DNA of 64,000 bases. Origin: a virus. Under the pieces are notes generated by a model. It saw only the letters and a program-made list of their open reading frames with translations. It was not told the DNA's origin and searched no databases. Below, piece by piece: positions 34,354-46,374 of the stretch (its first letter is position 1; every line of letters begins with the position of its first letter). The stretch is from IMG/VR virus record IMGVR_UViG_3300018429_000060, positions 27,307-91,306 of that record; one strand, given 5' to 3'. Position numbers and translations under genes: made by a program.

Positions 34354-36222
34354 ATGGCTGTCGTCGTCCACGTCTACGGGGTTCCGCCGGTCCTGCACGG
34401 CGAGCGGGTCCGGCTGCCCGCCGAGGTCGACGAGCAGCTGTCCTTGGCGCACTGCCTGCGCGAAGACCTCGTCACGCTGGAGCACCAGCGGCAGGACGCG
34501 GTCACCGCCGTCTGGTCCAGCTACCCGCAGATCGCCGCGATCGAAACCCAGCTCACGGCCGCCGAGACCGAGCTCACCGACCGTTCCGCGGCCGCGGCCG
34601 CGGAACGGTCCGCGGCCCGCAAGAAGGGTCCGACCGAGTCCTCCGAGGCGGTGCGTCAGCTCAAAGCCCGCATCAAGGACCTGCGCAGCCAGCGCCGCAC
34701 CGCCATCGCCGACGCCCACCCGACCGCCACACCGCGGCTCACCGCGATCGCCGACGCCCACCGCGCGGCCATCAAGGCCCTCTACGCCGACTACAGCCAG
34801 GGCCGCGGCCTGTACTGGGCCACCTACAACGACGTCGTTGCCCATCACCAGGTCGCCACCAAGAGGGTCGCGGCCGAACGCAAAGCCGGCCGCCCCGCCA
34901 ACATTCGGCATCACCGCTACGACGGCTCCGGCAGCATCACCGTGCAGCTCCAACGCCAGACCGGCGCACCGCCCCGGCTGCCGGCCACCATCGCCGACGA
35001 GCAGAACGGCCCCTGGCGCAACGTCCTGTACCTGACACCCTGGGTCGACCCCGACACCTGGGCCACCCTGGCGCGGGCCGAGCAGCGCCGCCGCCGCCTC
35101 GGCGTCGTTCGCCTCGACCTCGGCAACAAGCGCCACCTCAGCATCCCGGTGCTGGTCCACCGCATGTTGCCGGCGGACGCCGACATCACCAGCGCCCGGC
35201 TCGTCGTCCGCCGCGTCGCCGGCCACCGCAAGATCGAGCTGCACGTCACCGCCAGGATCAAGGATCCGGTGACCCGCTCCGGCGGGCCGGCCGTCGCCTT
35301 GCACCTCGGCTGGCGCCGCGAGGACGGCGGCGCCGTGCGCGTCGCCACCTGGCGCAGCACCGCCCCTGTCCACGTGCCGGACGACCTCAACGACCTGGTG
35401 CACGCCGACACCGACCACACCGGCACCATCTCCCTGCCCGCGCGCTGGTGGCACCGGGTGTCCACCCAGCCCGAGATGGCGGCCCGACGCGCCACCTCGC
35501 TCAACGACATCCGAGACCAGCTCGTCGCAGCCCTGACCGACAACCCACTCACGATCACCGCAGACGACGAGGACGCTCAGCCGGTCCCGACCGCCGCGGC
35601 GGTCGCGACGTGGCGTTCACCGGCCCGGTTCGCCCACCTCGCACGCACCTGGGCCACCGACTGCCCCGCAGGCCACCAGGCCACCGCCGCCGCCCTGGAA
35701 AACTGGCGACGCAGCGACCGCCGGCTCTGGGAACAGCAGGCGCACGGCACAGCCAATACCCTCGCGGCCCGCGCCGATGCCTACCGACGGACGATGTCCT
35801 GGCTACTGACCGGCGCCAGCCGACTGGTCCTGGACAACACGGCCATCGCCGACCTGGCCCGCCGCGCCGATCCCGCGACAGAGCCCACCCTGCCCACCGC
35901 GGTCACCGACCGGGTGGCCCACCAACGCATCGGCGCCTCACCCGGCCAACTCCGCAGCATCGCCACCACCACAGCGAACTCCTACGGCGTGGCCGTCGCC
36001 GTCATGCCCCACACGGGCATCACCCGCACCCACTACCGATGCGGACACCTCAATCCAGCCGACGACCGCTACTCGGCCGCCCGGATCGTCACCTGCGACG
36101 GCTGCGGTCAGCACTACGACCAGGAATCATCCGCAACCCTCATGCTGCTCGCCGCGAGCGGCGACGTGGCAGCACCCGGCAGCGCCACCGCTCGCAACCC
36201 CGACACCAGCGCACACGCGTAG
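34354..36222 (+). CDS. cas12m: Type V-M CRISPR effector Cas12m (V-U1/C2c4), 622 aa
   Basis: Blocks recalled from Mycolicibacterium Cas12m: QL.LAH.LREDLV, WSSYP, LYWA..N.V..HH, RHHR.DGSG.I.VQLQRQ.GAPPR, VHR.LPADADIT, VALHLGWR (His in RuvC-I), TRTH.RCGH.NPADDRY, CDGCG..YDQ; array directly downstream. Confidence 0.93.
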   Translation: MAVVVHVYGVPPVLHGERVRLPAEVDEQLSLAHCLREDLVTLEHQRQDAVTAVWSSYPQIAAIETQLTAAETELTDRSAAAAAERSAARKKGPTESSEAVRQLKARIKDLRSQRRTAIADAHPTATPRLTAIADAHRAAIKALYADYSQGRGLYWATYNDVVAHHQVATKRVAAERKAGRPANIRHHRYDGSGSITVQLQRQTGAPPRLPATIADEQNGPWRNVLYLTPWVDPDTWATLARAEQRRRRLGVVRLDLGNKRHLSIPVLVHRMLPADADITSARLVVRRVAGHRKIELHVTARIKDPVTRSGGPAVALHLGWRREDGGAVRVATWRSTAPVHVPDDLNDLVHADTDHTGTISLPARWWHRVSTQPEMAARRATSLNDIRDQLVAALTDNPLTITADDEDAQPVPTAAAVATWRSPARFAHLARTWATDCPAGHQATAAALENWRRSDRRLWEQQAHGTANTLAARADAYRRTMSWLLTGASRLVLDNTAIADLARRADPATEPTLPTAVTDRVAHQRIGASPGQLRSIATTTANSYGVAVAVMPHTGITRTHYRCGHLNPADDRYSAARIVTCDGCGQHYDQESSATLMLLAASGDVAAPGSATARNPDTSAHA

Positions 36223-36328
36223 GCTCTCCCCCCAGCCAGCACCGACGCACCTTGAAACCTGAACCTCTAGACCAGCGCTCGCGATGATCTCCATGTGGCC
36301 TGGTCAATCGCGTCTCGTACAGCGAGCT

Positions 36329-36913
36329 GTCGCAACGCCTGCGTCGGGGCCTCGTGCCGACGACGAGTCGATCTGGCGGGAGGCTTGTCGACTCCCGGAG
36401 CTGTCGCAACGCCTGCGTCGGGGCCTCGTGCCGACGACCTCTGCACAAGCGCCGGGACGTGCTCGACACGACCTGGTCGCAACGCCTGCGTCGGGGCCTC
36501 GTGCCGACGACCTCTGCACAAGCGCCGGGACGTGCTCGACACGACCTGGTCGCAACGCCTGCGTCGGGGCGTCGTGCCGACGACGATGCGCCCACAGCCT
36601 GGTCGCACCGCCTGTGTCGGGGCGTCGTGCCGACGACTATGCCCCTTCGTGTGGCGGTGCTGTGGTGGCCGAGTGGTCGCACCGCCTGCGTGGGGGCGTC
36701 GTACCGACGACATGCTGATGAGTGATGTTGGGTCGCGGTGGTGACGTCGCACCGCCTGCGTGGGGGCGTCGTACCGACGACGCGGATGCATCCAGCCGAG
36801 CGCGTTCGCGCTCCAAGTCACACCGCCTGCGTTGGGGCTTCGTACCGACGACACGGTTCTGGTGTCGGTCATACACGGCGCATCGCCTGCGTGGGGGGCG
36901 TCGTGCCGACGAG
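36329..36913 (+). CRISPR. CRISPR array, 9 repeats / 8 spacers
   Basis: 36-nt repeat GTCGCAACGCCTGCGTCGGGGCCTCGTGCCGACGAC at 36329, 36403, 36476; variants at 36549, 36602, 36676, 36746, 36817, 36877. Spacers 38, 37, 37, 17, 38, 34, 35, 24 nt; 3' stem CGTCGG/CCGACG + AC. Confidence 0.97.
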
Positions 36914-36945: not shown

Positions 36946-37851
36946 CTAGTGGTGCACGTCGAGGTAGTCGGCGATCATCTGGTCGAGTAGCTGCCACGGC
37001 TTGCCGGGCTCGACGGTTCCCGAGTCCACCGCCGCCTTCAGGGCGCGGGTCAGGGCGGCCGCGGTGGCTGCCGGCACGGTGCGACTGCCCAGCACGACCT
37101 CCAGGCCCACGTGGCCGCGGTGTCGCGGTTCGGTGGACATCGGGTCCAGGTAGCCGTCCTGCAGGTCGGTCAGGTGTCGTTCGGTGAGCGCGACGAGGAT
37201 GCCCATGGCGGTGGCCACGTTGCCCACGTTGTGCGCCGAGTGCGCCGAGGCGAGCGCGTCCAGGGTGGGCTGGTAGTCCTGGTAGGCGGCCAGCCACCGT
37301 TCGTCGGAGGTGCGGCCCAGCTGGTCCAGGGCGTCGCGGGCGGCGTCGGCCTCGCCGGCCAGGAACACCAGGTTCACCGTGTGGAAGGACAGGTTGGCCT
37401 CCGACAGCGGTTCCAGCGCGATCCGATCGAGCAGGTCCAGGGTCTTGTCGTCCAGGCCGGCGTAGGCGCGTTCGTCGATGTCGTCGATGCCGTCGTAGAG
37501 CTGTTTGAGGATGGCCAGGTCGTCGTCGCCCTCGATGGCGTTGTGCGACAGCTGCATCGCTAGCTGCCGCGCCTTGGGTAGGTCGTCGGTGACGAGCAGG
37601 AACCAGGCTTCCTCCAGGTCGGCGGCGATGCCGGCCTGGACTCGGTGGTTGCCCGACAGCACCAGCTCGTGGCCTTCTGCGTACTCGCCGGCGCCGCTGT
37701 AGATGAGCGGGGTGGAGGTGAGGGCGCCGTCGGTGCGGATGTTGGAGACGAGCCGGTCGAACTGTTCCTTGGTCATGTAGCGGGCGTTGACGTCGAGCAG
37801 GGTCAGGTCGGTCAGCCGGCGCCGCACCGGCAGCGGCTCGGACAGCCTCAC
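36946..37851 (-). CDS. ParB/Srx N-terminal domain protein
   Basis: NARYM...FDRLVSNIRTDG, VLSGNHRV, QLSHNAIEG; GTGA coupling. Confidence 0.85.
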   Translation of the reverse strand: MRLSEPLPVRRRLTDLTLLDVNARYMTKEQFDRLVSNIRTDGALTSTPLIYSGAGEYAEGHELVLSGNHRVQAGIAADLEEAWFLLVTDDLPKARQLAMQLSHNAIEGDDDLAILKQLYDGIDDIDERAYAGLDDKTLDLLDRIALEPLSEANLSFHTVNLVFLAGEADAARDALDQLGRTSDERWLAAYQDYQPTLDALASAHSAHNVGNVATAMGILVALTERHLTDLQDGYLDPMSTEPRHRGHVGLEVVLGSRTVPAATAAALTRALKAAVDSGTVEPGKPWQLLDQMIADYLDVHH

Positions 37852-38288
37852 CGCAACGGTCCCCGCACCACGCCGGCGGCCTCGTCGACGATCACCAGGT
37901 CGGCCGACAGTCCCTTGATCGGACCCGGCTGCCGTGGTCGCACCGCCGCGGCGTACTCGGCGGCGGCCACCGCCGCCAGCAGGCGCGGCCGGTCCTGCTC
38001 GGTGTCGCCGTAGATGGCCACCGCGCCGTCGACCAGCTGCACGCGCCATCCGTCGCCCGACCACACCACCCCACCCGGCTCGTCCGGCTCCGGCAGCAGC
38101 GCCTGCGACTGACTGATCAGCCGCACGGCGTGGCTCATCTGCTGCCCGGCGGCCTGCAGCGCCGGCACCAGCTGGCCCAGCCACGCGGCCACCTCGCCCA
38201 GCGACGCCACCAGCTCCCGCTGCAGCCGGCCGTGCGTCTCGTCCGGGTCGGAGGTGTCGTCCGGGTCGGTGTCGGGGAAGCCGGTCAT
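37848..38288 (-). CDS. Hypothetical protein with terminase Walker-B-like tail
   Basis: AGGAG RBS; ends IKGLSADLVIVDEAA. Confidence 0.6.
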   Translation of the reverse strand: MTGFPDTDPDDTSDPDETHGRLQRELVASLGEVAAWLGQLVPALQAAGQQMSHAVRLISQSQALLPEPDEPGGVVWSGDGWRVQLVDGAVAIYGDTEQDRPRLLAAVAAAEYAAAVRPRQPGPIKGLSADLVIVDEAAGVVRGPLR

Positions 38289-38878
38289 AGTGCGACTCCT
38301 GCGTGTTGGTCGTGCATGATGTCGCCGGTCCACAGCGCGAGCTCGGCGGCCAGGACGAGGTCGTCGTGGCCGGTGGACGCCTCGTGCTTCTGGTAGCCGG
38401 TGCTGGTGGGCCGGGCGCGGAACCGGCCGAGCTGGTCCCCGAACGCCCGCGCGTTGGGCAGCTCCGGGGGGATGGTCACGCCGCGTTGTTCCAGGGCGAC
38501 CTGCAGCACCTCGGTCAGACGGTGCTTGCCCACGACGTACTCGTCGGGGTTGCTGTGGGTCAGGGTGCGGCCGGAGCTGATGCTGACCGCCACGATGTGC
38601 AGGTCCGGGCCGGCCTTGCGGGCCATCTCGACGACCGCGGCGCCGATGCCGGTGGCGTCGATGGTGGCGACCACCGGGTAGCCGGCGTCGACGAGCTCCT
38701 GGGCGACGGTGACCAGCAGGTCGGCCAGCTGCTGGTACGGGGTGCCGAGCTCGATGTTGCCGATGGAGAGCAGGTCCCACAGCGGCCGGTGCGAGTTCGG
38801 CCGCAGCCCCACGGTGCGCAGCGCGGCGAGCGCCGCCGGGTCCTGCTCCTTGCCGACGTCGAGGCCGAGCGAGATCAC
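38285..38878 (-). CDS. Stand-alone terminase large subunit nuclease (RNase H-like) domain
   Basis: LGLDVGKEQD, IDATGIG, HDDLVLA..LA.W: acidic catalytic set intact. Confidence 0.85.
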   Translation of the reverse strand: MISLGLDVGKEQDPAALAALRTVGLRPNSHRPLWDLLSIGNIELGTPYQQLADLLVTVAQELVDAGYPVVATIDATGIGAAVVEMARKAGPDLHIVAVSISSGRTLTHSNPDEYVVGKHRLTEVLQVALEQRGVTIPPELPNARAFGDQLGRFRARPTSTGYQKHEASTGHDDLVLAAELALWTGDIMHDQHAGVAL

Positions 38879-39159
38879 CGGCCGTCCCCGGCGAGGTCGG
38901 CGCCGTAGCCGCTCAGGGCGTGCTGCAGGGTCAACCAGTGGCCGGTGTCGCGGGCGGCGGCGACCCCGAGGGCGGCGCGGATCATGGTGGCGGCCAGCCG
39001 TTCGTCGCTCAGGTCACCGACCAGGTTCCCCGACGCCGTCAGGTGGGTGCCGTGGTTGTCGCAGATCGTGACGTGCACCATCAGCATCGGCTCGGTGCCG
39101 TCGTCGTCGTGGTGGTTCTCGACGGTGATCGGCACGTCGGTCCTCGAGGTCGTGGTCAC
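38875..39159 (-). CDS. Hypothetical protein
   Basis: GTGA coupling at both ends. Confidence 0.6.
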   Translation of the reverse strand: MTTTSRTDVPITVENHHDDDGTEPMLMVHVTICDNHGTHLTASGNLVGDLSDERLAATMIRAALGVAAARDTGHWLTLQHALSGYGADLAGDGR

Positions 39160-40547
39160 CGCGCCACCCCGGTCACCACCACCGGCCCCGCCGCCGCGTC
39201 GGCGGCCGTGGGGGTGAGGTGGGTGTGTTTGGCCTGCCACAGCTCCAGCGCCTCCGCGAGCGTCCACTGTCCGAGTGGCCCGCCGTACTGCAGCTGGTAG
39301 GTGTGGATGCCGTCGTCGCAGGGTTTGCGGCTGGTCAGTTTCACGCCGGGGATGCCGCGGCCGTACTTGGCCGACGTCGGGTTGTTGGTGAACGCCGTGG
39401 TGGCCCAGCCGAGGACCCGCTTGGACAGGGCCCGCTGCACCAGCAGCTGCGCCTCGTGGCTGATCGCGGCCATCACCACGAGCTTGGACAGCCGCCGCCA
39501 CTTCGACGGGGCGACCGCGAAGTCGGACATCAGGTAGGCGTCCAGCCCGAACTTCGGCGGCAGGTACCCGAACGCCCCGATGATCTTGCCGCCGGTGGAC
39601 ACCGCGCAGGAGAACAGCGGCGCGCCGGGGGCGATGCCCCGTCCCAGGTAGGCCGAGCGCAGCCCGTTGAACTGCGGTCCGGTCAGCGGGTGCAGCCGCA
39701 GGTCCTCACCGAGGTCGTCCTCGGGTGCCAGCCGGGCCATCAGCACCGGTTCGGTCTTCTGGTGCGGGCCGACGTAGCGGGCGATGCCCGGCTGGGCGAA
39801 CACCCAGATCGGCATCGCCCGCGGCCCGGTCTGCACGAACCCGACGCGGTAGGGCTCCAGCTGCGGCAGCTGGTAGTGCAGCCCGAGCAGCCAGTGCGGC
39901 CGGTCGATGACCAGCTGGATGATCTCGTTCTTGCCGTCGTCGTCCAGGATCTCGTAGGACGGCTCCGGCCAGTCGAAGTGGTCCTCGATGCCCTTGAACA
40001 TGGTCTCGTAGCCGGCCGCCCAGAACGGCGGGAACGACGCCACCGGCGCCTCCGGCGGGGCCTGCCGCAGGTACTCGCGCACGTCGCGGGCGTCGAACGA
40101 GGACAGCCGCAGCGTCGCCCTGGCGAGCTTGGCCACCGTGTCGGCGTGCAGGGTCGGCCACTGGTCACGGTAGGCGGCCACCATCCGCCGGTGGTAGGCG
40201 CCGGTCTTGCCGACGAAGGAGAACCAGCGGGTGCCCAGCATCAGCGTGGCCAGGGTGCCGATGCCGTCGTCGAGGTAGTCGTAGAGCCAGGACAGCTCCT
40301 CGACGAACTCGTCCTTGACGGTGAACGGCACCGGCTGCCCGGCGAACTGCCACCCCAGGGCGCACGAGTACGGGTTCACGTCGTTGGAGTGCAGCCGGAA
40401 CTCCCGCTCCGGGCAGGTCCCGGCCAGGGTGCGTTCGATGGTCAGGTTCCCGGAGCAGCCCACATAGACGTCGGCGCCGGCCGGCCACAGCCGGGCGTGC
40501 TGGGCGACGATGCTGCGCATCTCGGCCGGGATGGTGCCCTGGAACAC
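39156..40547 (-). CDS. Putative DNA-modification protein (MTase-like N-domain + GNAT/Mom-like C-domain)
   Basis: GGAGG RBS + GTG; VYVGCSGN, LHSND, SFPPF (atypical motif IV); C-terminal GKIIGAFGY..YLMSDF..RLSKLV..TTAFT..SAKY GNAT-like pattern. ORF secure, function inferred. Confidence 0.65.
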   Translation of the reverse strand: MFQGTIPAEMRSIVAQHARLWPAGADVYVGCSGNLTIERTLAGTCPEREFRLHSNDVNPYSCALGWQFAGQPVPFTVKDEFVEELSWLYDYLDDGIGTLATLMLGTRWFSFVGKTGAYHRRMVAAYRDQWPTLHADTVAKLARATLRLSSFDARDVREYLRQAPPEAPVASFPPFWAAGYETMFKGIEDHFDWPEPSYEILDDDGKNEIIQLVIDRPHWLLGLHYQLPQLEPYRVGFVQTGPRAMPIWVFAQPGIARYVGPHQKTEPVLMARLAPEDDLGEDLRLHPLTGPQFNGLRSAYLGRGIAPGAPLFSCAVSTGGKIIGAFGYLPPKFGLDAYLMSDFAVAPSKWRRLSKLVVMAAISHEAQLLVQRALSKRVLGWATTAFTNNPTSAKYGRGIPGVKLTSRKPCDDGIHTYQLQYGGPLGQWTLAEALELWQAKHTHLTPTAADAAAGPVVVTGVAR

Positions 40548-40624
40548 GCTCGGGCCTCCGCAGCACAAATCTGGGCTGGGGCGCCCGGCCACGGATGCCA
40601 GTCGACGCACAACAACGGTGAGTG

Positions 40625-40696
40625 AGCGCCGGCACGGCCTCGAACCGCCCCTACCGCCTGGAATGGCGGTCGTGCTACCAGCTACACCACCAGCGC
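40625..40696 (-). tRNA. tRNA-Gly(UCC)-like RNA, non-canonical
   Basis: GCGCUGG UG GUGU-AGCUGGUA-GCAC G ACCGC-CAUUCCAG-GCGGU AGG GGCGG-UUCGAGG-CCGUG CCGGCGC U: cloverleaf, G1-C72/C2-G71/G3-C70, U73; 8-nt anticodon loop, imperfect T stem, no encoded CCA. Confidence 0.8.
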
Positions 40697-40819
40697 ATGA
40701 CTCGTCGCGGATGGTAACGCACCGCAGGTCAGGCTGCCCCTAGACTCCCCGGTGACGATCACCGGGCCTGGCGCACATGGCCGCCGGAAGCACTCGTGCT
40801 TTCGGGAGGGCCCGCCGGC

Positions 40820-41488
40820 GTGTCGACGACCTTCCGTTACGCCTCCGGCCGGGACATGTGGGACCGGCAGCTGGGTGAGCCGGCCGAGGAATACGACTGG
40901 TTCCTGCACTGGCGCAACGAGGCCCACCGCCGCACCTACGTGGCCACCGCGCTGAAGTTCGGGATCAGCCCGGTCACGGTGACGCGGGTCGCGAAACAGA
41001 ACCGCTGGCCCGAACGGCTGCTGGCGTGGAAGGCCGACAACTCGCGGCTGCTGCACGAGCGGTTCACCGATCTGCTCGAACAGTCGATGGTGCCGTTCGC
41101 GCAGGGCATGGTGCGGATGGCCGCCCACACCGCCCGCGCCCCGCTGGACAAGATCCCGGCCGATCGGGCGATGACCGCGTTCGCCGCGGCCCTGCGGGTG
41201 ATCAAGGAACCGGGCATCGCGGACCTCATCCGCATCTCGGCTGCGTCCGGGATGGCCAACCGCGAGATCGACCTCGCCGCGGTCATCCTCGACCGGCTGG
41301 CCGCACAGTTCCCCGAGGCCCACGACGCGGTCCTGGACGCACTGGACGCCGCCACCCAGAACCCCGCCGGGCCGCTGGTCCTCGACGCCGCCCCCGTCCC
41401 GGCCGCCGTCCCCGCCGGCGCCGGCGGCGCTGTCGACGGTGGTGTCGACGACGGGGACGACTGCGTGATCGACCCAGGGAACGGCTGA
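40820..41488 (+). CDS. Terminase small subunit-like protein
   Basis: WDRQLGE..EYDWF, HTH, RW.ER..AW; directly upstream of the terL ATPase. Confidence 0.7.
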   Translation: MSTTFRYASGRDMWDRQLGEPAEEYDWFLHWRNEAHRRTYVATALKFGISPVTVTRVAKQNRWPERLLAWKADNSRLLHERFTDLLEQSMVPFAQGMVRMAAHTARAPLDKIPADRAMTAFAAALRVIKEPGIADLIRISAASGMANREIDLAAVILDRLAAQFPEAHDAVLDALDAATQNPAGPLVLDAAPVPAAVPAGAGGAVDGGVDDGDDCVIDPGNG

Positions 41489-41492
41489 CCCC

Positions 41493-42317
41493 ATGGCGTC
41501 CGTCACGGTGCTCTCGGAGTTCCTGGCCCGTCGCGACCCGGCCCGGATGATGCGCCAGGCCGGGATGCCCCCCGACACGTGGCAGTCCACCCTGCTGCGC
41601 CGCCGACCGCACCGGGCGCTGGTCACCACCTCCCGGCAGGCCGGCAAGAGCAGCGTCGCCGGCGCGATGGGCCTGCACCGCGCCGCCGAGAAGCCCCGCC
41701 AGACCATCGTCGCCGTCTCGCCCACCCAGCGGCAGTCCGCGCTGCTGGTGTCGAAGGTCCGCCGCTACGCTCAGGCGCTCGGGCTGCAGCTGGCCCGCGA
41801 CAACACCCTGTCGCTGGAGCTGGCCAACGAGTCCGTCGTGTACGCGCTGCCCGGCCACCCGGACACCGTCCGCGGCTACTCCCCCGACCTGCTGATCATC
41901 GACGAGGCCGCGTACACCACCGAAGCGCTCTACACCGCGTGCCTGCCGATGCTCGCCGCCACCGGCGGCGACCTCATCGCCATCTCCACCCCGAACGGCA
42001 AACAGGGCTGGTACTGGGCCGAGTGGTCCGGGCAGGGCGCACCGGGCTGGATGAAGATCCAGGTCCCCTACACCCGCATCCGGCGCATCAGCGCCGAGTT
42101 CATCACCTCCCAGCGGGCGTCGATGTCGCGGGAGCGGTTCTCCACCGAGTACGAGTGCGCGTTCAACTCCTCCACGTTCGGCCTGTTCAACGCCGGCGAC
42201 CTGGCCGCCGCGCTGCAGGCCGAGCCGATGGCGGCCGGCGGCGGTGGCCTGCCCGACGCGCGGGAGATCATGCGCCGCAACCGGGACCGGTTCGCCGCCG
42301 GGCAGGCCGCCTCATGA
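41493..42317 (+). CDS. Terminase large subunit, ATPase domain only
   Basis: PDTWQ, SRQAGKS, SPTQRQS, RGYSPDLLIIDEAA, ISTPNG, F.TEYECAF; stops at 274 aa. Confidence 0.92.
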   Translation: MASVTVLSEFLARRDPARMMRQAGMPPDTWQSTLLRRRPHRALVTTSRQAGKSSVAGAMGLHRAAEKPRQTIVAVSPTQRQSALLVSKVRRYAQALGLQLARDNTLSLELANESVVYALPGHPDTVRGYSPDLLIIDEAAYTTEALYTACLPMLAATGGDLIAISTPNGKQGWYWAEWSGQGAPGWMKIQVPYTRIRRISAEFITSQRASMSRERFSTEYECAFNSSTFGLFNAGDLAAALQAEPMAAGGGGLPDAREIMRRNRDRFAAGQAAS

Positions 42318-43141
42318 GCACCCCGCCGCTGGCGCCGCGGCAGCAGCGCACCGACGCCCCCGCCGGCCCCGACGCCCGCGTCCTGGCCCTGGACATCGGC
42401 CTCTACGGGCACCTCGGGTCGATCAGCTCGATGTTCTGGTACCAGCGCGGTGGGCTGCTCCACGCCCACCAGGCGCAGCTGCTGCCCGAGGGTGCGACCC
42501 TGCTGGACCAGCTGGACATCCTGGAGGCGACCGCCGCCTCCTACGAGGAGTACCGGCGGATCAGCCCGGTGGTGGTCCTCGGTGTCACCGTGCTGTCGCC
42601 GGTCGGCCGCCGCGAGGTCCGCGGCCACCTGGAGTCCTGGTTCAACCCGCCGTGGCGGCGGCGCCTGGTGGCCATCGGGGACTACGCCGGCGAGCACATC
42701 GCCGTCCGCGGCCTGGTCTCCCGCAAGAAGCTGCGGGACCTGATCTCGACCCGGCTGACCGAGCACACCCTCACGCTCACCCCCGAGCAGCACGACGCCG
42801 TCGCCCTCTACACCGGCCGCCGGGAGAAACCCGGCCGCGACCCGGACGACGAGTGGCGCACCGACGAGGTCGACGCGGTCGCCCTGCCGGTGGCGCTGTC
42901 CTGCCTCGGCGCGACGGCGCTGCTGCCGGCGCCGATGCCCACCCCGCAGCAACGCCAACGCGACCTCGAGCGCGCGATGCGCGCCTGGCAGGTGCAGCTG
43001 GACCTGTCCAACGACGACGCCTGGGACCGCGCCGTGCGCCACGGCCACCCGCACCACCAGACCACCGCCGCTGTCAGCGGCGCCGTGCCCATGCCCGACC
43101 GGTCCACCCCGACCTTCGGCAGCCTGCGATGGAAGGACTGA
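42314..43141 (+). CDS. Degenerate terminase nuclease-like protein
   Basis: VLALDIG, VSRKKLRDLI, EWR.DEVDAVALPVAL echo the terL C-domain; several acidic residues altered. Confidence 0.55.
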   Translation: MSTPPLAPRQQRTDAPAGPDARVLALDIGLYGHLGSISSMFWYQRGGLLHAHQAQLLPEGATLLDQLDILEATAASYEEYRRISPVVVLGVTVLSPVGRREVRGHLESWFNPPWRRRLVAIGDYAGEHIAVRGLVSRKKLRDLISTRLTEHTLTLTPEQHDAVALYTGRREKPGRDPDDEWRTDEVDAVALPVALSCLGATALLPAPMPTPQQRQRDLERAMRAWQVQLDLSNDDAWDRAVRHGHPHHQTTAAVSGAVPMPDRSTPTFGSLRWKD

Positions 43142-43143
43142 CC

Positions 43144-44808
43144 GTGCGCCTCATGAGCAAGGTGACGGACCTGCTGCGGTGGGCCACCCCCGCCGCACCG
43201 GCCGCGCCCGAACCGCCGGCGTGGACCCCGCCGCCGCTGTCCACCGCGGCCGCCCTGCCCGTGCCGGCCATCTACCGGCCGGTGGTCGCCGCGGCCGCGA
43301 GCGCCGCCCTGGCCACCGCCACCACCTACGCCGGCGTCGCCACCGGCGCCCGTACCGGCGCGGGTGTGCTCACCGCGGCCGTCCCGACCGCCGGCGACAT
43401 CGGCGCCGTCACCGCCTCCCGACTGCCTCGCGCCCTGCAACCACCGCGGCCGCGGGAGTGGCAGGAACGCGCCTGGGCGGCCTGGCGGCACTGCGGCGAG
43501 GCCCGCCAGGCCGTCGAGTGGATCTGCAACAACCTGTCCCGCTGCCACCTCTACATCGGCGACGTCGACCCCGCCAGCGCCGGCGACCCCAAACCCGCCG
43601 CCACCCCCGGCCTGGCCGGCGACATCCTCGCCGAGCTGCACAACGGCCGTCTCGGGCAGAGCGCCATGCTGGCCCGCCTGGGGCTGCACCTGCTGGTGCC
43701 CGGCGAGAGCTGGCTCGCCGGCTACCCCCGCCCACCCGCCGCCGGCGGCACCGCCGCCGGCGATGACGGGCAACCGGCCACCCAGTGGAGCGTGCTGTCG
43801 CGCCGCGAGTGGTCCGAGGTCACCGACACCCACATCCGGTTCAAGCTCGCCGACCACCCCAACCCCGGCGCCGACGGCTGGGTCACCTTCGCCTCCGACG
43901 AGGTCGTGCTCATCCCGATCTACGTCCCCGACGCCGAGGACGCCACCACGGCCACCAGCGCGTTCGAGGCCGCACTGGACACCCTTGACGAGTTGTTCGG
44001 CCTGTCGCGGCGCGTCGCCGTCGACATCAAGTCGCGGCTGGCCGGCGCCGGGGCACTGCCCATCCCCGAGTCGGCCACCCTGCCCACGCCGGGCGCCTCC
44101 GACGGCCTCAACGGCCTGCACGGCGACCCGTTCGTCGCCGCGTTCGCCCGCGCCGCCAAGACCGCCATCCAGAATCCCGACGACGTGGCCGCGCTGCTGC
44201 CGATCTTCTTCCGGGTGCCCGACGAGTCGTTGACCGGCAACGGCTTCAAGCTGATCACCTTCGCCACCCCGTTCGACGCCCAGGTGCCGGTGCTGCGCCA
44301 GGACGCCCGCCGCACCCTGGCCGCCGACCTGAACATCCCGGCCAGCATCGTGCTCGGCGTCGAGGACCTGAACCACTGGTCGATGTGGGGCGTCACCGAG
44401 GACGCCCTGAAGTCCCACATGGGACCGCTGGCGGCGATCATCTGCACCCAGCTGACCATCAAGGTGCTGTGGCCGGCGCTGCGCGCCGCCGGCGAGACCG
44501 ACGTCGAGAAGCGCTGCATCTGGTGGGATCCGTCCGAGGTCGTGCTGCGCCCGGACGGCTCCACCGTCGCGCTCACCGCGCACCGCGACGGCGTCATCGG
44601 CGGCAAGGCCACCCGCCGCGAGATCGGCTTCTCCGAGGAAGACGCCCCCACCGCCGAGGAGACCGCGGCCCGCGCCGCCGCCAACCAGCCCCCACCGGCC
44701 GGCGCCCAGGGTGAGGACGGCGGGCAGGCCACCCCGTCGCAGCGGCCCAACCCACCCGCCGACGACGGCGACAGCACCCCCGACGGCACCCCACCCGCCC
44801 AGCAGTAA
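43144..44808 (+). CDS. Phage portal protein (actinophage type)
   Basis: WQERAW..GEARQ..W..N.LSR, L.VPGE.WL, SRLAGAG, NHWSMW. Confidence 0.85.
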   Translation: MRLMSKVTDLLRWATPAAPAAPEPPAWTPPPLSTAAALPVPAIYRPVVAAAASAALATATTYAGVATGARTGAGVLTAAVPTAGDIGAVTASRLPRALQPPRPREWQERAWAAWRHCGEARQAVEWICNNLSRCHLYIGDVDPASAGDPKPAATPGLAGDILAELHNGRLGQSAMLARLGLHLLVPGESWLAGYPRPPAAGGTAAGDDGQPATQWSVLSRREWSEVTDTHIRFKLADHPNPGADGWVTFASDEVVLIPIYVPDAEDATTATSAFEAALDTLDELFGLSRRVAVDIKSRLAGAGALPIPESATLPTPGASDGLNGLHGDPFVAAFARAAKTAIQNPDDVAALLPIFFRVPDESLTGNGFKLITFATPFDAQVPVLRQDARRTLAADLNIPASIVLGVEDLNHWSMWGVTEDALKSHMGPLAAIICTQLTIKVLWPALRAAGETDVEKRCIWWDPSEVVLRPDGSTVALTAHRDGVIGGKATRREIGFSEEDAPTAEETAARAAANQPPPAGAQGEDGGQATPSQRPNPPADDGDSTPDGTPPAQQ

Positions 44809-44892
44809 CCCCCTCCACCAGCGCATCGTGAGCAAACCTCACGACGCGGCGTGGTGCTGCTCGGCGAACCACTGTTAACCGAGAGGAATACG

Positions 44893-46374
44893 GTGAAACC
44901 AGCCTCCGACCCCGCCGGCCGTGGCGCCGTGGTGCTGGATCACCCTCGCCTCGTCGGCCTCAAACGCACCGCCGCCGGCCTCGCCCTGCCCCGCTCCGTC
45001 GACTTCCTGGAGCCACCCGAGCGGCTGCTGGAGCTGCCCACCGCCACCACCCCGGACGTGCTCGACGAGATCGTGTTCGGCTGGCTCGCCGAGCACTTCG
45101 CCGTCAGCACCAAGACCGGCACGACGTACTGCTCCTGCATGTCGGTGTACCTGCCGTGGTGCTCGGCCGAGACCGTCGACCCGCTGCTGATCACCCGCCC
45201 GCAGGCGTCGCGGTTCGCCGGCTGGCTCGCCCAGGCCGCCTCCGGCGTCACCGACCGCGTGCGCTCACCGTCGCGGCGCAACCAGATCCTCTCGGCGTGC
45301 TCGTCGCTGGTCGAGTACGCCATCGACGCCGACGTGCGCCCCACCGCGTTCCCCAACCCGTTCGCCCGCGTGAAGCGCCCGGTGGTCGACCGCCACCCCA
45401 AGGCCGGCGTGCCGCTGACCGTGTCCCACGTCAACCAGCTGATCCTGTCCGCGCGGGCCGACCACCTGCTCGGCGGCGTGCTGGGCAAGCTGCTCGTCGC
45501 CATGATGGCCAGGCTCGGGCTGCGCCCCGGTGACGTGTGCCGGCTGAACCTGGGCGGCGTCGCGGACGACGCCCACGGCTCCTACCAGCTGTCGGTGCCG
45601 GTCAAGGGCGGCCGGCTGCTGTCGCGGTGGCTACCCGCCGACATGGCCAGCGACTTCTACACCTACGCCCACCGGGTGCGCGTCGCCCCCGACCACGACG
45701 GCCGCCCGGATCCGCTCGGCGTCGACCCGCTGTTCGTGCACCCGCGGCGCCGGCGGCGCCTCAACACCGACGACGTGCTGCGCCTGGTGCGCCGCTCCCA
45801 GCTGGCCGCGCGGGTGCTGCCGTCGAGCCGGGTGTGCCCGCGGGACCTGCGGCCGTTCTTCAACACCCTCGCGCGGGCGCAGGGCGCGACGCTGGAGGAA
45901 CGCCAGGTCGGCCTCGGCCACGCCAGCGCGAAGACCACCGAGCTGTACGACCGCACGGTGTGGGCGCGCGAGCACGACCCGGCCATCCGGGTCAGCGCCG
46001 CGTTCGACGACTACCCGGCCGAGACCCGCCTCGGTCAGCTCGTCCCCGACCGCCGCTGGGCGCCGCCGGTGCAGGCCGGCTGTGACTGCACCCCACAGTG
46101 GCCGCAATTGCACGTCGACCTGTCCCCCGTCGGTGTCGACCAGACCGCGGTGTGCGAGATCACCGAGCAGCACGAACCCGGCGTGCACCAGCTGCAGCCC
46201 TACTGCCGCCGCTGCCGCGTCGCCTACCCCGGCCCGTTCCGCGTGGCCCGCGTCCTGGACGACCCGCACGGCCGGTTCCTCGACGAGGCCCGCGCGGGGC
46301 TCACCGACGCCGCCCTGTACCCGGAAGCTGTCAACCGCCGCGAGGAACGCCGACGCCGCGACGACACCACCTAG
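44893..46374 (+). CDS. Tyrosine recombinase/integrase with C-terminal Cys-rich extension
   Basis: LGLRPGDV, VKGG, PRDLR, LGHASAKTTELYD; tail CDC..CRRC. Confidence 0.9.
   Translation: MKPASDPAGRGAVVLDHPRLVGLKRTAAGLALPRSVDFLEPPERLLELPTATTPDVLDEIVFGWLAEHFAVSTKTGTTYCSCMSVYLPWCSAETVDPLLITRPQASRFAGWLAQAASGVTDRVRSPSRRNQILSACSSLVEYAIDADVRPTAFPNPFARVKRPVVDRHPKAGVPLTVSHVNQLILSARADHLLGGVLGKLLVAMMARLGLRPGDVCRLNLGGVADDAHGSYQLSVPVKGGRLLSRWLPADMASDFYTYAHRVRVAPDHDGRPDPLGVDPLFVHPRRRRRLNTDDVLRLVRRSQLAARVLPSSRVCPRDLRPFFNTLARAQGATLEERQVGLGHASAKTTELYDRTVWAREHDPAIRVSAAFDDYPAETRLGQLVPDRRWAPPVQAGCDCTPQWPQLHVDLSPVGVDQTAVCEITEQHEPGVHQLQPYCRRCRVAYPGPFRVARVLDDPHGRFLDEARAGLTDAALYPEAVNRREERRRRDDTT

Follow-up and report, generated by a model that had tools for sequence, protein, structure and literature searches.

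The window analysed here, a stretch of 64,000 nt, is the right-hand 64 kb of the 91,306-nt IMG/VR provirus record IMGVR_UViG_3300018429_000060 (approximately 72% G+C), and it encodes, among others, a tape-measure protein, a portal protein, an integrase and a helicase. On its minus strand, between positions 36946 and 40547, the GC-frame plot and the sequence delimit five genes (A to E, Table 1), and the third-position G+C signal switches frame exactly at the 4-nt stop/start overlaps between them. The first of these genes encodes a fusion enzyme, and it is preceded on the same strand by a tRNA-Gly-like gene. This RNA gene lies in the 248-nt gap between two divergent operons; it is the single tRNA found by ARAGORN in the whole window, where it is typed as 'tRNA-???' with the two-base anticodon 'tc', and the only tRNA of the complete 91-kb record.

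Gene A starts with a GTG codon at position 40547, which is preceded by GGAGG and located 77 nt past U73 of the tRNA. A TACCAT hexamer is found 14 nt upstream of the tRNA 5' end, at a place where TACGCT (L022) and TATGAT (L087) align in two homologous loci. It is a weak candidate for a -10 box, and a scan of positions 40400-40900 for sigma-70 promoter and terminator consensus sequences gave no match. The proteins encoded by genes A to E had no match in NCBIfam, and the intergenic region had no blastn match in phage records. An odd tRNA-Gly-like gene placed ahead of the operon of a fusion enzyme, as reported in a preliminary description of this DNA, is thus confirmed. The same holds for the details it gave of the layout, namely the 77-nt spacer, the 463-residue product with its GCSGN and SFPPF motifs (VGCSGN and SFPPF in the sequence), the -10-like box, and the four further overlapping genes, the last one being ParB-N-like.

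Table 1. Position of the tRNA-Gly-like gene, the operon and neighbouring genes in the window.
Feature	Position	Strand	Description
Gene A	40547-39156	-	463 amino acids; Dam-like methyltransferase fold fused to a GNAT fold
Dam-like domain of A	39732-40547	-	residues ~1-272
GNAT domain of A	39213-39710	-	residues ~280-445
Gene B	39159-38875	-	94 amino acids; matches no known family; GTGA overlap with A
Gene C	38878-38285	-	197 amino acids; stand-alone; resembles the RNaseH-like nuclease domain of the terminase large subunit
Gene D	38288-37848	-	146 amino acids; no convincing family, weak matches only
Gene E	37851-36946	-	301 amino acids; ParB/Srx N-domain-like protein
tRNA-Gly-like gene	40624-40696	-	'tRNA-???' of ARAGORN
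TACCAT	40711-40716	-	possible -10 (TANNNT) box, read from the sequence
Small-terminase-like gene	40796-41488	+	divergent from A-E
ATPase-only large-terminase gene	41493-42317	+	274 amino acids; phrog_7579; divergent from A-E
Portal open reading frame	42340-44808	+	~360 unexplained N-terminal residues ahead of the portal match
Integrase-like gene	44809-46374	+	phrog_1, 3.5e-19

The tRNA-Gly-like RNA and its conservation

The RNA of the window forms a cloverleaf of 72-73 nt without an encoded CCA. Its acceptor stem (GCGCUGG/CCGGCGC) contains G1-C72, C2-G71, G3-C70 and U5.G68 and is followed by U73, and the identity set of glycyl-tRNA synthetase (GlyRS), which comprises G1-C72, C2-G71, G3-C70, U73, C35 and C36, reads as intact from the sequence. 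The D arm is normal (G10-C25, A14, G18G19), as are the D and T loops, and the departures concern the length of the anticodon loop and the base of the T stem. A covariance model built from homologous RNAs (R1) reads the anticodon arm as ACCGC/CAUUCCAG/GCGGU, with an 8-nt loop on a 5-bp stem. Both ARAGORN and the minimum-energy fold give a 6-nt loop (AUUCCA) on a 6-bp stem with an extra C-G pair, and in neither reading does the loop count 7 nt. The T arm (GGCGG/UUCGAGG/CCGUG) has a G49.G65 mismatch and a G50.U64 wobble. The cloverleaf with bacterial glycine identity elements, UCC in the loop and G.G/G.U pairs at the T-stem base had been described correctly from the outset; the 8-nt loop proposed at the same time stands for the covariance-model reading and becomes 6 nt in the other two. 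Some of these departures recur elsewhere: a one-base insertion before U33 is found in three other distinct sequences of the alignment (L114, L044 and L006), and the 49:65 pair is likewise broken in the two closest relatives of the window RNA (L003 and L004).

On model R1 the window RNA scores 61 bits (E = 6e-9), which is a match by construction as the sequence is among the 52 used for training. When a 141-nt slice was compared with Rfam, the tRNA family RF00005 (gathering score 29 bits) was not reported even at E<=10, and the only matches of the region were sub-threshold ones to mascRNA (the best, 14.9 bits), ASdes and Twister-sister. This missing match is taken as a measure of non-canonicity, not of RNA absence. 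The folding energy of the single sequence is unremarkable for its G+C content (z = -1.1), so that the argument for a real RNA depends on comparison between loci.

For this comparison, homologues of A were gathered from phage records (15, all from Mycobacterium and Gordonia phages and with 47-49% identity), IMG/VR and GTDB genomes. The resulting 165 loci, cultured phages included, cover 34-70% protein identity, and 161 of them could be assessed for the RNA with ARAGORN and with model R1, built from 52 of the homologous RNAs. A tRNA-Gly-like gene was found on the same strand within 300 nt upstream of the enzyme gene in 98 of the 161 loci. Seven more have a copy further upstream, approximately 900 nt downstream (after the ParB-like gene) or adjoining on the opposite strand, and the remaining 56 have no tRNA-Gly-like gene nearby. 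The upstream RNAs lie 18-240 nt from the start codon, and every linked tRNA that could be typed reads NCC. A second scan was centred on the most divergent members of the family (30-41% identity, loci of 29-70% G+C) and drew on the best 150 of 924 GNAT-domain cluster hits; all of its 41 typed tRNAs were tRNA-Gly, and the covariance model added degenerate copies in loci of these most divergent members. Among cultured phages, Mycobacterium phage Jeon carries an annotated tRNA-Gly(tcc) that ends 37 nt before its A homologue, gene 68, while in Gordonia phage Clawz an unannotated RNA, missed by ARAGORN, occupies the same place and scores 49.9 bits on the model.

When mapped on a tree of 148 distinct enzymes, the RNA turns up in almost all deep clades and changes state 11 times, compared with approximately 45 times in shuffles; most of the absences correspond to one 36-member Streptomyces clade. 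Each of the Streptomycetaceae chromosomes (8-11 Mb) contains only some 20-30 model hits at E<=0.01, other tRNA types included, so that chance adjacency of RNA and enzyme is negligible. Compensatory changes were observed for 17 of the 21 pairs, and all four helices covary. The proportion of pairing cells is 98.5%, versus 66% when shuffled and 33-49% when partners are slid, in an alignment that was fitted to the model and leans towards structure. As judged from sequence comparison, this evidence is decisive for a real RNA, and the co-occurrence of RNA and enzyme homologues, which had been suggested as a check, holds across deep divergence (98 of 161 loci, the tree and the second scan).

To evaluate the selection acting on the RNA, 77 distinct module RNAs were set against 11 host tRNA-Gly genes (Table 2); the latter come from three module-carrying Streptomycetaceae chromosomes, which served as stand-ins for the host of the window. 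A C32-G38 Watson-Crick pair is possible in most module RNAs, and many of them encode CCA. The Rfam tRNA threshold is reached by three of 14 module RNAs, whereas 16 host tRNAs in control loci score 53-73 bits. The positions that are invariant among the module RNAs are the published GlyRS determinants (PMC7826273), and the overall pattern is that which would be expected of an RNA selected for glycine charging, not for decoding.

Table 2. State of tRNA positions in module RNAs and host tRNA-Gly genes.
Feature	Module RNAs	Host tRNA-Gly genes
G1C2G3 / C70G71C72U73	77/77	10/11
C35C36	76/77	11/11
Position 34	U 49, A 14, C 11, G 3	U 4, G 4, C 3
U33	57/77	11/11
U8	48/77	11/11
A14	51/77	11/11
GG in D loop	32/77	10/11
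Purine-37	65/77	11/11 (A37)
Anticodon loop not 7 nt	9/77	0/11
T54-T55 (TT)	56/77	10/11
Positions 32/38	C32 61, G38 63	U32 9, C32 2, A38 11
Pair 49:65	mostly C-G or G-C	G.U 11/11
Pair 51:63	A-U 41	G-C 8

Several variations on this arrangement were seen. Some metagenomic phages have tandem private tRNA-Gly pairs upstream of the enzyme gene (L128:1478-1624; L163:3245-3406). The most divergent private tRNAs, on phage contigs of 29-33% G+C (L259:2863-2930; L245:763-829), begin with GCA...UGC, in which A3-U70 replaces G3-C70; they have ACC in the loop and very short T arms, and score 31-36 bits on the model. In a close relative from Kutzneria viridogrisea (L022:3770-4000, compared with window positions 40548-40740) the block GCGTTACGCT, which resembles a promoter, is kept along with the divergent terminase genes, while most of the tRNA is deleted, which looks like a recent tRNA loss. 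The tRNA-less Streptomyces clade (L050:3850-3995; approximately 35 loci, L049-L085) has a different conserved leader, in which GATAGGTGACAT is followed by a 7-bp hairpin (CUGCGCU...AGCGCAG) with GGUUCC in its loop, and this in turn by a G+C-rich terminator-like hairpin before the ribosome-binding site; this leader could be a tRNA remnant or a regulatory replacement. On Streptomycetaceae chromosomes, three atypical tRNA-like genes (L178:1501-1573, L179:1501-1573 and L174:1501-1573) score 53-58 bits on the Rfam tRNA model versus 65-73 bits for the other tRNAs reported. At least two of them are tRNA-Gly(UCC) genes with an extra T-stem base, and one has a UGCAAUC T loop and a D loop without GG; they might be cell-wall (non-proteogenic) tRNA-Gly genes or another mobile-element tRNA copy.

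The fusion enzyme and its genetic partners

Protein A matches the Pfam families PF22555 "DAM-like-phage1" (4e-92, 308.8 bits) and PF22559 "GNAT-phage-like" (2.7e-50, 170.8 bits; cut-off 27), as well as phrog_7858 (2e-88). PF22555, PF22559 and PHROGs 7858 and 7405 (the latter matched by protein E) are uncharacterised families, and the entries consulted record neither a function nor a linked tRNA, and the relatives of A are labelled "putative antirestriction adenine methyltransferase" in the source databases. For the AlphaFold2 model of A (predicted local distance difference test, pLDDT, 83.6), the best VIA fold matches of residues 1-255 were E. coli Dam (2ore, Z 12.6), T4 Dam (1q0s, Z 12.2) and DpnM (2dpm, Z 11.4), so that the methyltransferase-like N-terminal half noticed earlier is borne out as a Dam-like fold. 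This relation is one of fold only, as no match of A to the Pfam Dam family was obtained at E<=0.01, and hhalign of the family profile (alignment A1) against E. coli Dam gave no signal. A sequence search of the PDB with the same profile returned CaMKII matches only, which were rejected as spurious products of a PPF-x-W-P-x-P stretch. Six A homologues (P0058, P0069, P0074, P0078, P0079 and P0101) are approximately 250 residues longer (~700-712 amino acids) and are named Hint-domain proteins in their source records, one of them carrying PF14528, which suggests that these homologues hold intein insertions.

Within the A family, motif I (VGCSGN) and motif II (HSND) of the methyltransferase fold are conserved (alignment A1). 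The place of motif IV, after the strand formed by residues 169-171, reads FPPF/Y instead of DPPY, with F172, P173 and F175 invariant; from the fold match and the spacing, FPPF is probably the equivalent of D181-P-P-Y of Dam. N6-adenine methyltransferases need the D, N or S residue of motif IV for methyl transfer, and its replacement by Phe argues for a role of this domain in base flipping or targeting, not in methylation.

When folded alone, the C-terminal domain of A adopts a GNAT fold (pLDDT 89). In the VIA comparison of this domain with 48,161 chains, 1y9k ranked first (Z 11.4) and Mu Mom second (8bv8_B, Z 11.2, root-mean-square deviation 3.0 over 140 residues); with the whole protein, Mu Mom was the best GNAT match (Z 10.8). 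A GNAT fold with Mom among its two best structural matches thus agrees with what had been proposed for this half of the protein. Foldseek on the whole model returned generic GNAT and methyltransferase matches without Mom, which VIA-align did list, and Fem-type aminoacyl-tRNA transferases are absent from the 50 best structural matches listed for the GNAT domain. CoA-using GNATs have a pyrophosphate-loop motif, Q/RxxGxG/A, in place of which the A family has RLSKL (alignment A3). At 50% identity, the GNAT domain by itself accounts for 924 clusters.

A homologue of E is encoded in 164 of the 165 loci and directly adjoins A in 137 of them. The protein matches phrog_7405 (6.5e-60) and ParB-like PHROGs (1e-5 to 1e-7), and 29 of its 30 nearest Atlas clusters belong to the PF02195-carrying set (top score 0.98), while a comparison with Pfam gave no match at E<=1. 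The family shows the invariant motifs NA(R), SG(N)HR and HN, and the annotation of the Clawz homologue names a ParB-like nuclease domain.

Genes B, C and D are another matter. Protein C matches phrog_27743 (7e-23), with weaker matches to a TerL PHROG (2e-3) and to Terminase_6C (E 0.09), and 26 of its 30 nearest Atlas clusters belong to the PF17289-carrying set (top score 0.97). Its homologues are present in only five of the 165 related loci, and homologues of B and D in none of them, so that the conserved unit consists of the tRNA, the fusion enzyme A and the ParB-like protein E. Of the operon unit outlined in the preliminary description, these three components are conserved, whereas the terminase-nuclease and the link to packaging are not; the latter is a peculiarity of the lineage of the window and no family feature. 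In this lineage the large terminase is apparently split into an ATPase-only TerL, encoded on the plus strand, and the Terminase_6C-like nuclease of gene C, which stands alone on the minus strand. The integrase-like gene directly follows the portal gene, an unusual spot within a packaging/head module. Downstream of E, a region of approximately 600 nt (36220-36850) differs from the rest of the window in that third-position G+C gives no clear indication of coding on either of its strands.

A candidate glycine donor for DNA modification

The arrangement described above is best accounted for if the module tRNA is a private, non-translational donor of glycine for a Mom-like DNA modification, to which we assign a probability of roughly 60%. 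Mom of phage Mu moves glycine from Gly-tRNAGly to the N6 of adenine in double-stranded DNA (PMC13219725, Silva et al. 2026), and the statement in the preliminary description that it uses glycyl-tRNA was correct. We infer the chemistry, target and product of the module from this enzyme and from the staphylococcal non-proteogenic tRNA-Gly precedent (PMC7826273), while gene order and coupling, domain folds, motif states, RNA conservation, identity elements and covariation were read directly from the loci and models.

A promoter just upstream of the tRNA would drive a single transcript comprising the tRNA and the operon, from which host tRNA-processing enzymes would excise the tRNA; the host would add the CCA end, and host GlyRS would charge the RNA with glycine, a step proposed because the bacterial glycine identity elements are kept. 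The abnormal anticodon loop and T stem, joined in relatives by irregular D and T loops and by deviations at U33 and at position 37, may largely exclude the tRNA from EF-Tu and the ribosome, and such poor engagement would reserve the glycyl-tRNA pool for enzyme A. The Dam-like domain would bind double-stranded DNA and flip the target adenine into the aromatic FPPF pocket, where the polar motif-IV residue for methyl transfer has been lost, and the GNAT domain would move glycine from the tRNA 3' end onto the base in a Mom-like manner. The predicted product is N6-glycyl-deoxyadenosine (N6-glycyl-dA), perhaps rearranging to N6-carbamoylmethyl-dA, with the ParB-like protein E as activator or DNA loader assisting on double-stranded DNA, and the modified DNA would resist host restriction. 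This fully specified version, in which the tRNA would be a dedicated aminoacyl cofactor sharing a transcript with the enzyme, the Dam fold would be catalytically dead and serve to flip adenine, and the GNAT domain would add the glycine, is put forward tentatively, its chances being a little below even. It might be, more speculatively, that the adenosine-binding pocket of the Dam fold holds A76 of the charged tRNA instead of S-adenosylmethionine (SAM).

Several observations weigh against this interpretation. The kinship of A with Mom is structural: the Mom match is tied with ordinary acetyl-CoA GNATs, hhalign detected no sequence similarity between the two proteins (probability 0.2 with A1), and A has no match to PF25680, the family that Mom itself matches at 2e-75, its only Pfam matches being PF22555 and PF22559. 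Membership of the Mom family by sequence is thus not supported. The domain model also shows no helical insert between its last strands equivalent to the essential helix-turn-helix (HTH)-like insertion of Mom (residues ~175-209), which was described as a feature of that enzyme (PMC13219725); the Dam-like domain could supply DNA binding in its place. Since the SAM-binding motifs I and II are kept, some methyl- or SAM-dependent activity would still be compatible with the sequence. As for the RNA, the oddities of the window copy could be early decay, and many module tRNAs look canonical enough for decoding. About a third of the homologues have no nearby tRNA, and in the 36-member Streptomyces clade no tRNA-Gly-like gene was found within 180 kb (two complete genomes). 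The private tRNA is therefore dispensable for the enzyme family and an accessory; Mom likewise works with a host tRNA.

Other explanations share part of this evidence. The tRNA may indeed donate glycine while acceptor or product differ from those of Mom, the glycine being passed to another base, to a nucleotide precursor or to a protein (the ParB-like partner, for example, or one involved in packaging), or being combined with SAM in a two-step product. A GNAT domain outside the Mom family, the conserved SAM-pocket motifs, and the extra genes B-D inside the operon of the window's lineage are in line with such a scheme, which we nevertheless regard as unlikely, though the strongest of the competitors, because the Dam-like fusion and the ParB/Srx pairing in 164 of 165 loci point to DNA adenine and B-D are missing from almost all relatives. 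Somewhat less probable again is an ordinary SAM-dependent anti-restriction N6-methyladenine methyltransferase, with an unrelated GNAT domain and a normal translational tRNA-Gly that merely shares its promoter. The source-database names of the relatives would suit such an enzyme, as would the Dam fold and its conserved motifs I and II, but the invariant Phe in motif IV, where N6-methyltransferases have D, N or S, does not. Phages often carry tRNAs, and several module tRNAs look fully canonical; a translational helper would however not be expected to be exclusively tRNA-Gly across hosts of 29-70% G+C (among the best 150 of 924 hits), to be the sole tRNA of a 91-kb provirus record, or to relax its decoding features (U33, position 34 including A34, loop length, purine-37 and G18G19) while its charging determinants stay invariant.

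It is improbable that the tRNA-like element acts as a cis-acting leader (an RNase P/Z site, a stabiliser or an mRNA regulator) or is itself the substrate of the enzyme, acetylated or methylated in the style of TacT. Its nearly constant position upstream of the start codon on the same strand, at 18-240 nt, would fit a leader; a processing signal, however, requires only the tRNA shape and not invariant G1C2G3/U73 and C35C36, many copies encode CCA, and in several loci the RNA follows the ParB-like gene or is encoded on the other strand. Gly-tRNAGly is indeed a target of GNAT toxins such as TacT (cited in PMC13219725), but there is no evident rationale for a phage to carry a toxin-like enzyme together with its own substrate. 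Finally, tRNA-Gly genes are common integration sites of actinophages, some of which bring a replacement tRNA (PMC10865867), and an integrase gene is located 4 kb from the RNA. An integration-site remnant, or a phage tRNA replacing a disrupted host gene (tRNA-dependent lysogeny), was nonetheless rejected as very improbable, on the position of the RNA in Jeon (~50.7 of 60.9 kb) and Clawz (~13 of 57.7 kb), linear phage genomes in which it sits beside gene A and away from any integrase, and on Table 2 of PMC10865867, in which the phages with their own tRNA have Lys, Ile2 or Leu attB tRNAs, never Gly. Moreover, the cloverleaf is of full length, genes for TerS, TerL and the portal lie between it and the integrase in the window, and a replacement tRNA must decode.

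Relation to known systems and biological significance

The module combines features of several known systems. Like Mu Mom (PF25680, PDB 8BV8), A is a GNAT-fold phage enzyme for which the same glycine transfer to adenine in double-stranded DNA, with evasion of restriction, is proposed. It differs from Mom in having no sequence similarity to it and no HTH-like insertion, a whole Dam-like domain being fused instead, and while Mom uses a host tRNA, most A members come with a tRNA gene of their own and with a ParB-like partner. The closest parallel for the RNA is provided by Staphylococcus aureus, where Fem transferases are supplied by non-proteogenic tRNA-Gly species that escape EF-Tu (PMC7826273). 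In the tRNA-Gly that supplies FmhB, FemA and FemB, too, the GlyRS determinants are kept, the D and T arms have diverged, and the RNA is reserved for a GNAT-related aminoacyl transferase; it is however chromosomal, serves peptidoglycan synthesis and has a normal anticodon loop, whereas the module tRNA is encoded by a virus and linked with an enzyme directed at DNA, and drifts in U33, position 34 and loop length.

The N-terminal domain of A shares with E. coli Dam, T4 Dam and DpnM the order of motifs I, II, insert and IV as well as their spacing, and is set apart by FPPF/Y, the invariant Phe for Asp, and the fused GNAT domain. The genetic pairing of a DNA-modifying enzyme with a ParB-like protein without an obvious partition role is also known from the thymine dioxygenases represented by 5mYOX176/ParB176, where ParB-like protein and DNA dioxygenase are cognate phage partners and the former activates the latter on double-stranded DNA (PMC13229309). 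That enzyme belongs to another superfamily, and activation by the ParB-like partner, seen there, is for A and E a proposal. A full-text search found no literature on the family with the PF22555 and PF22559 fusion or on its linked tRNA, and the Mom paper (PMC13219725) mentions neither.

If the proposed function is correct, the annotation "antirestriction adenine methyltransferase" would have to be corrected, and the module would account for a class of "odd" phage tRNA genes that escape standard finders or are typed by them as undetermined. To our knowledge, tRNA-dependent DNA hypermodification has so far been known from one enzyme, Mu Mom, which borrows its tRNA from the host. The module would represent a second, independently evolved system of tRNA-dependent DNA aminoacylation, and its RNA would be the first virus-encoded non-translational tRNA. 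The chemistry would then be widespread in phages of actinobacteria and other phyla (924 clusters for the GNAT domain). Its origin would lie in a different GNAT family, one joined to a Dam fold that has been disabled, with phages insulating it from translation by means of their own decoding-impaired tRNA.

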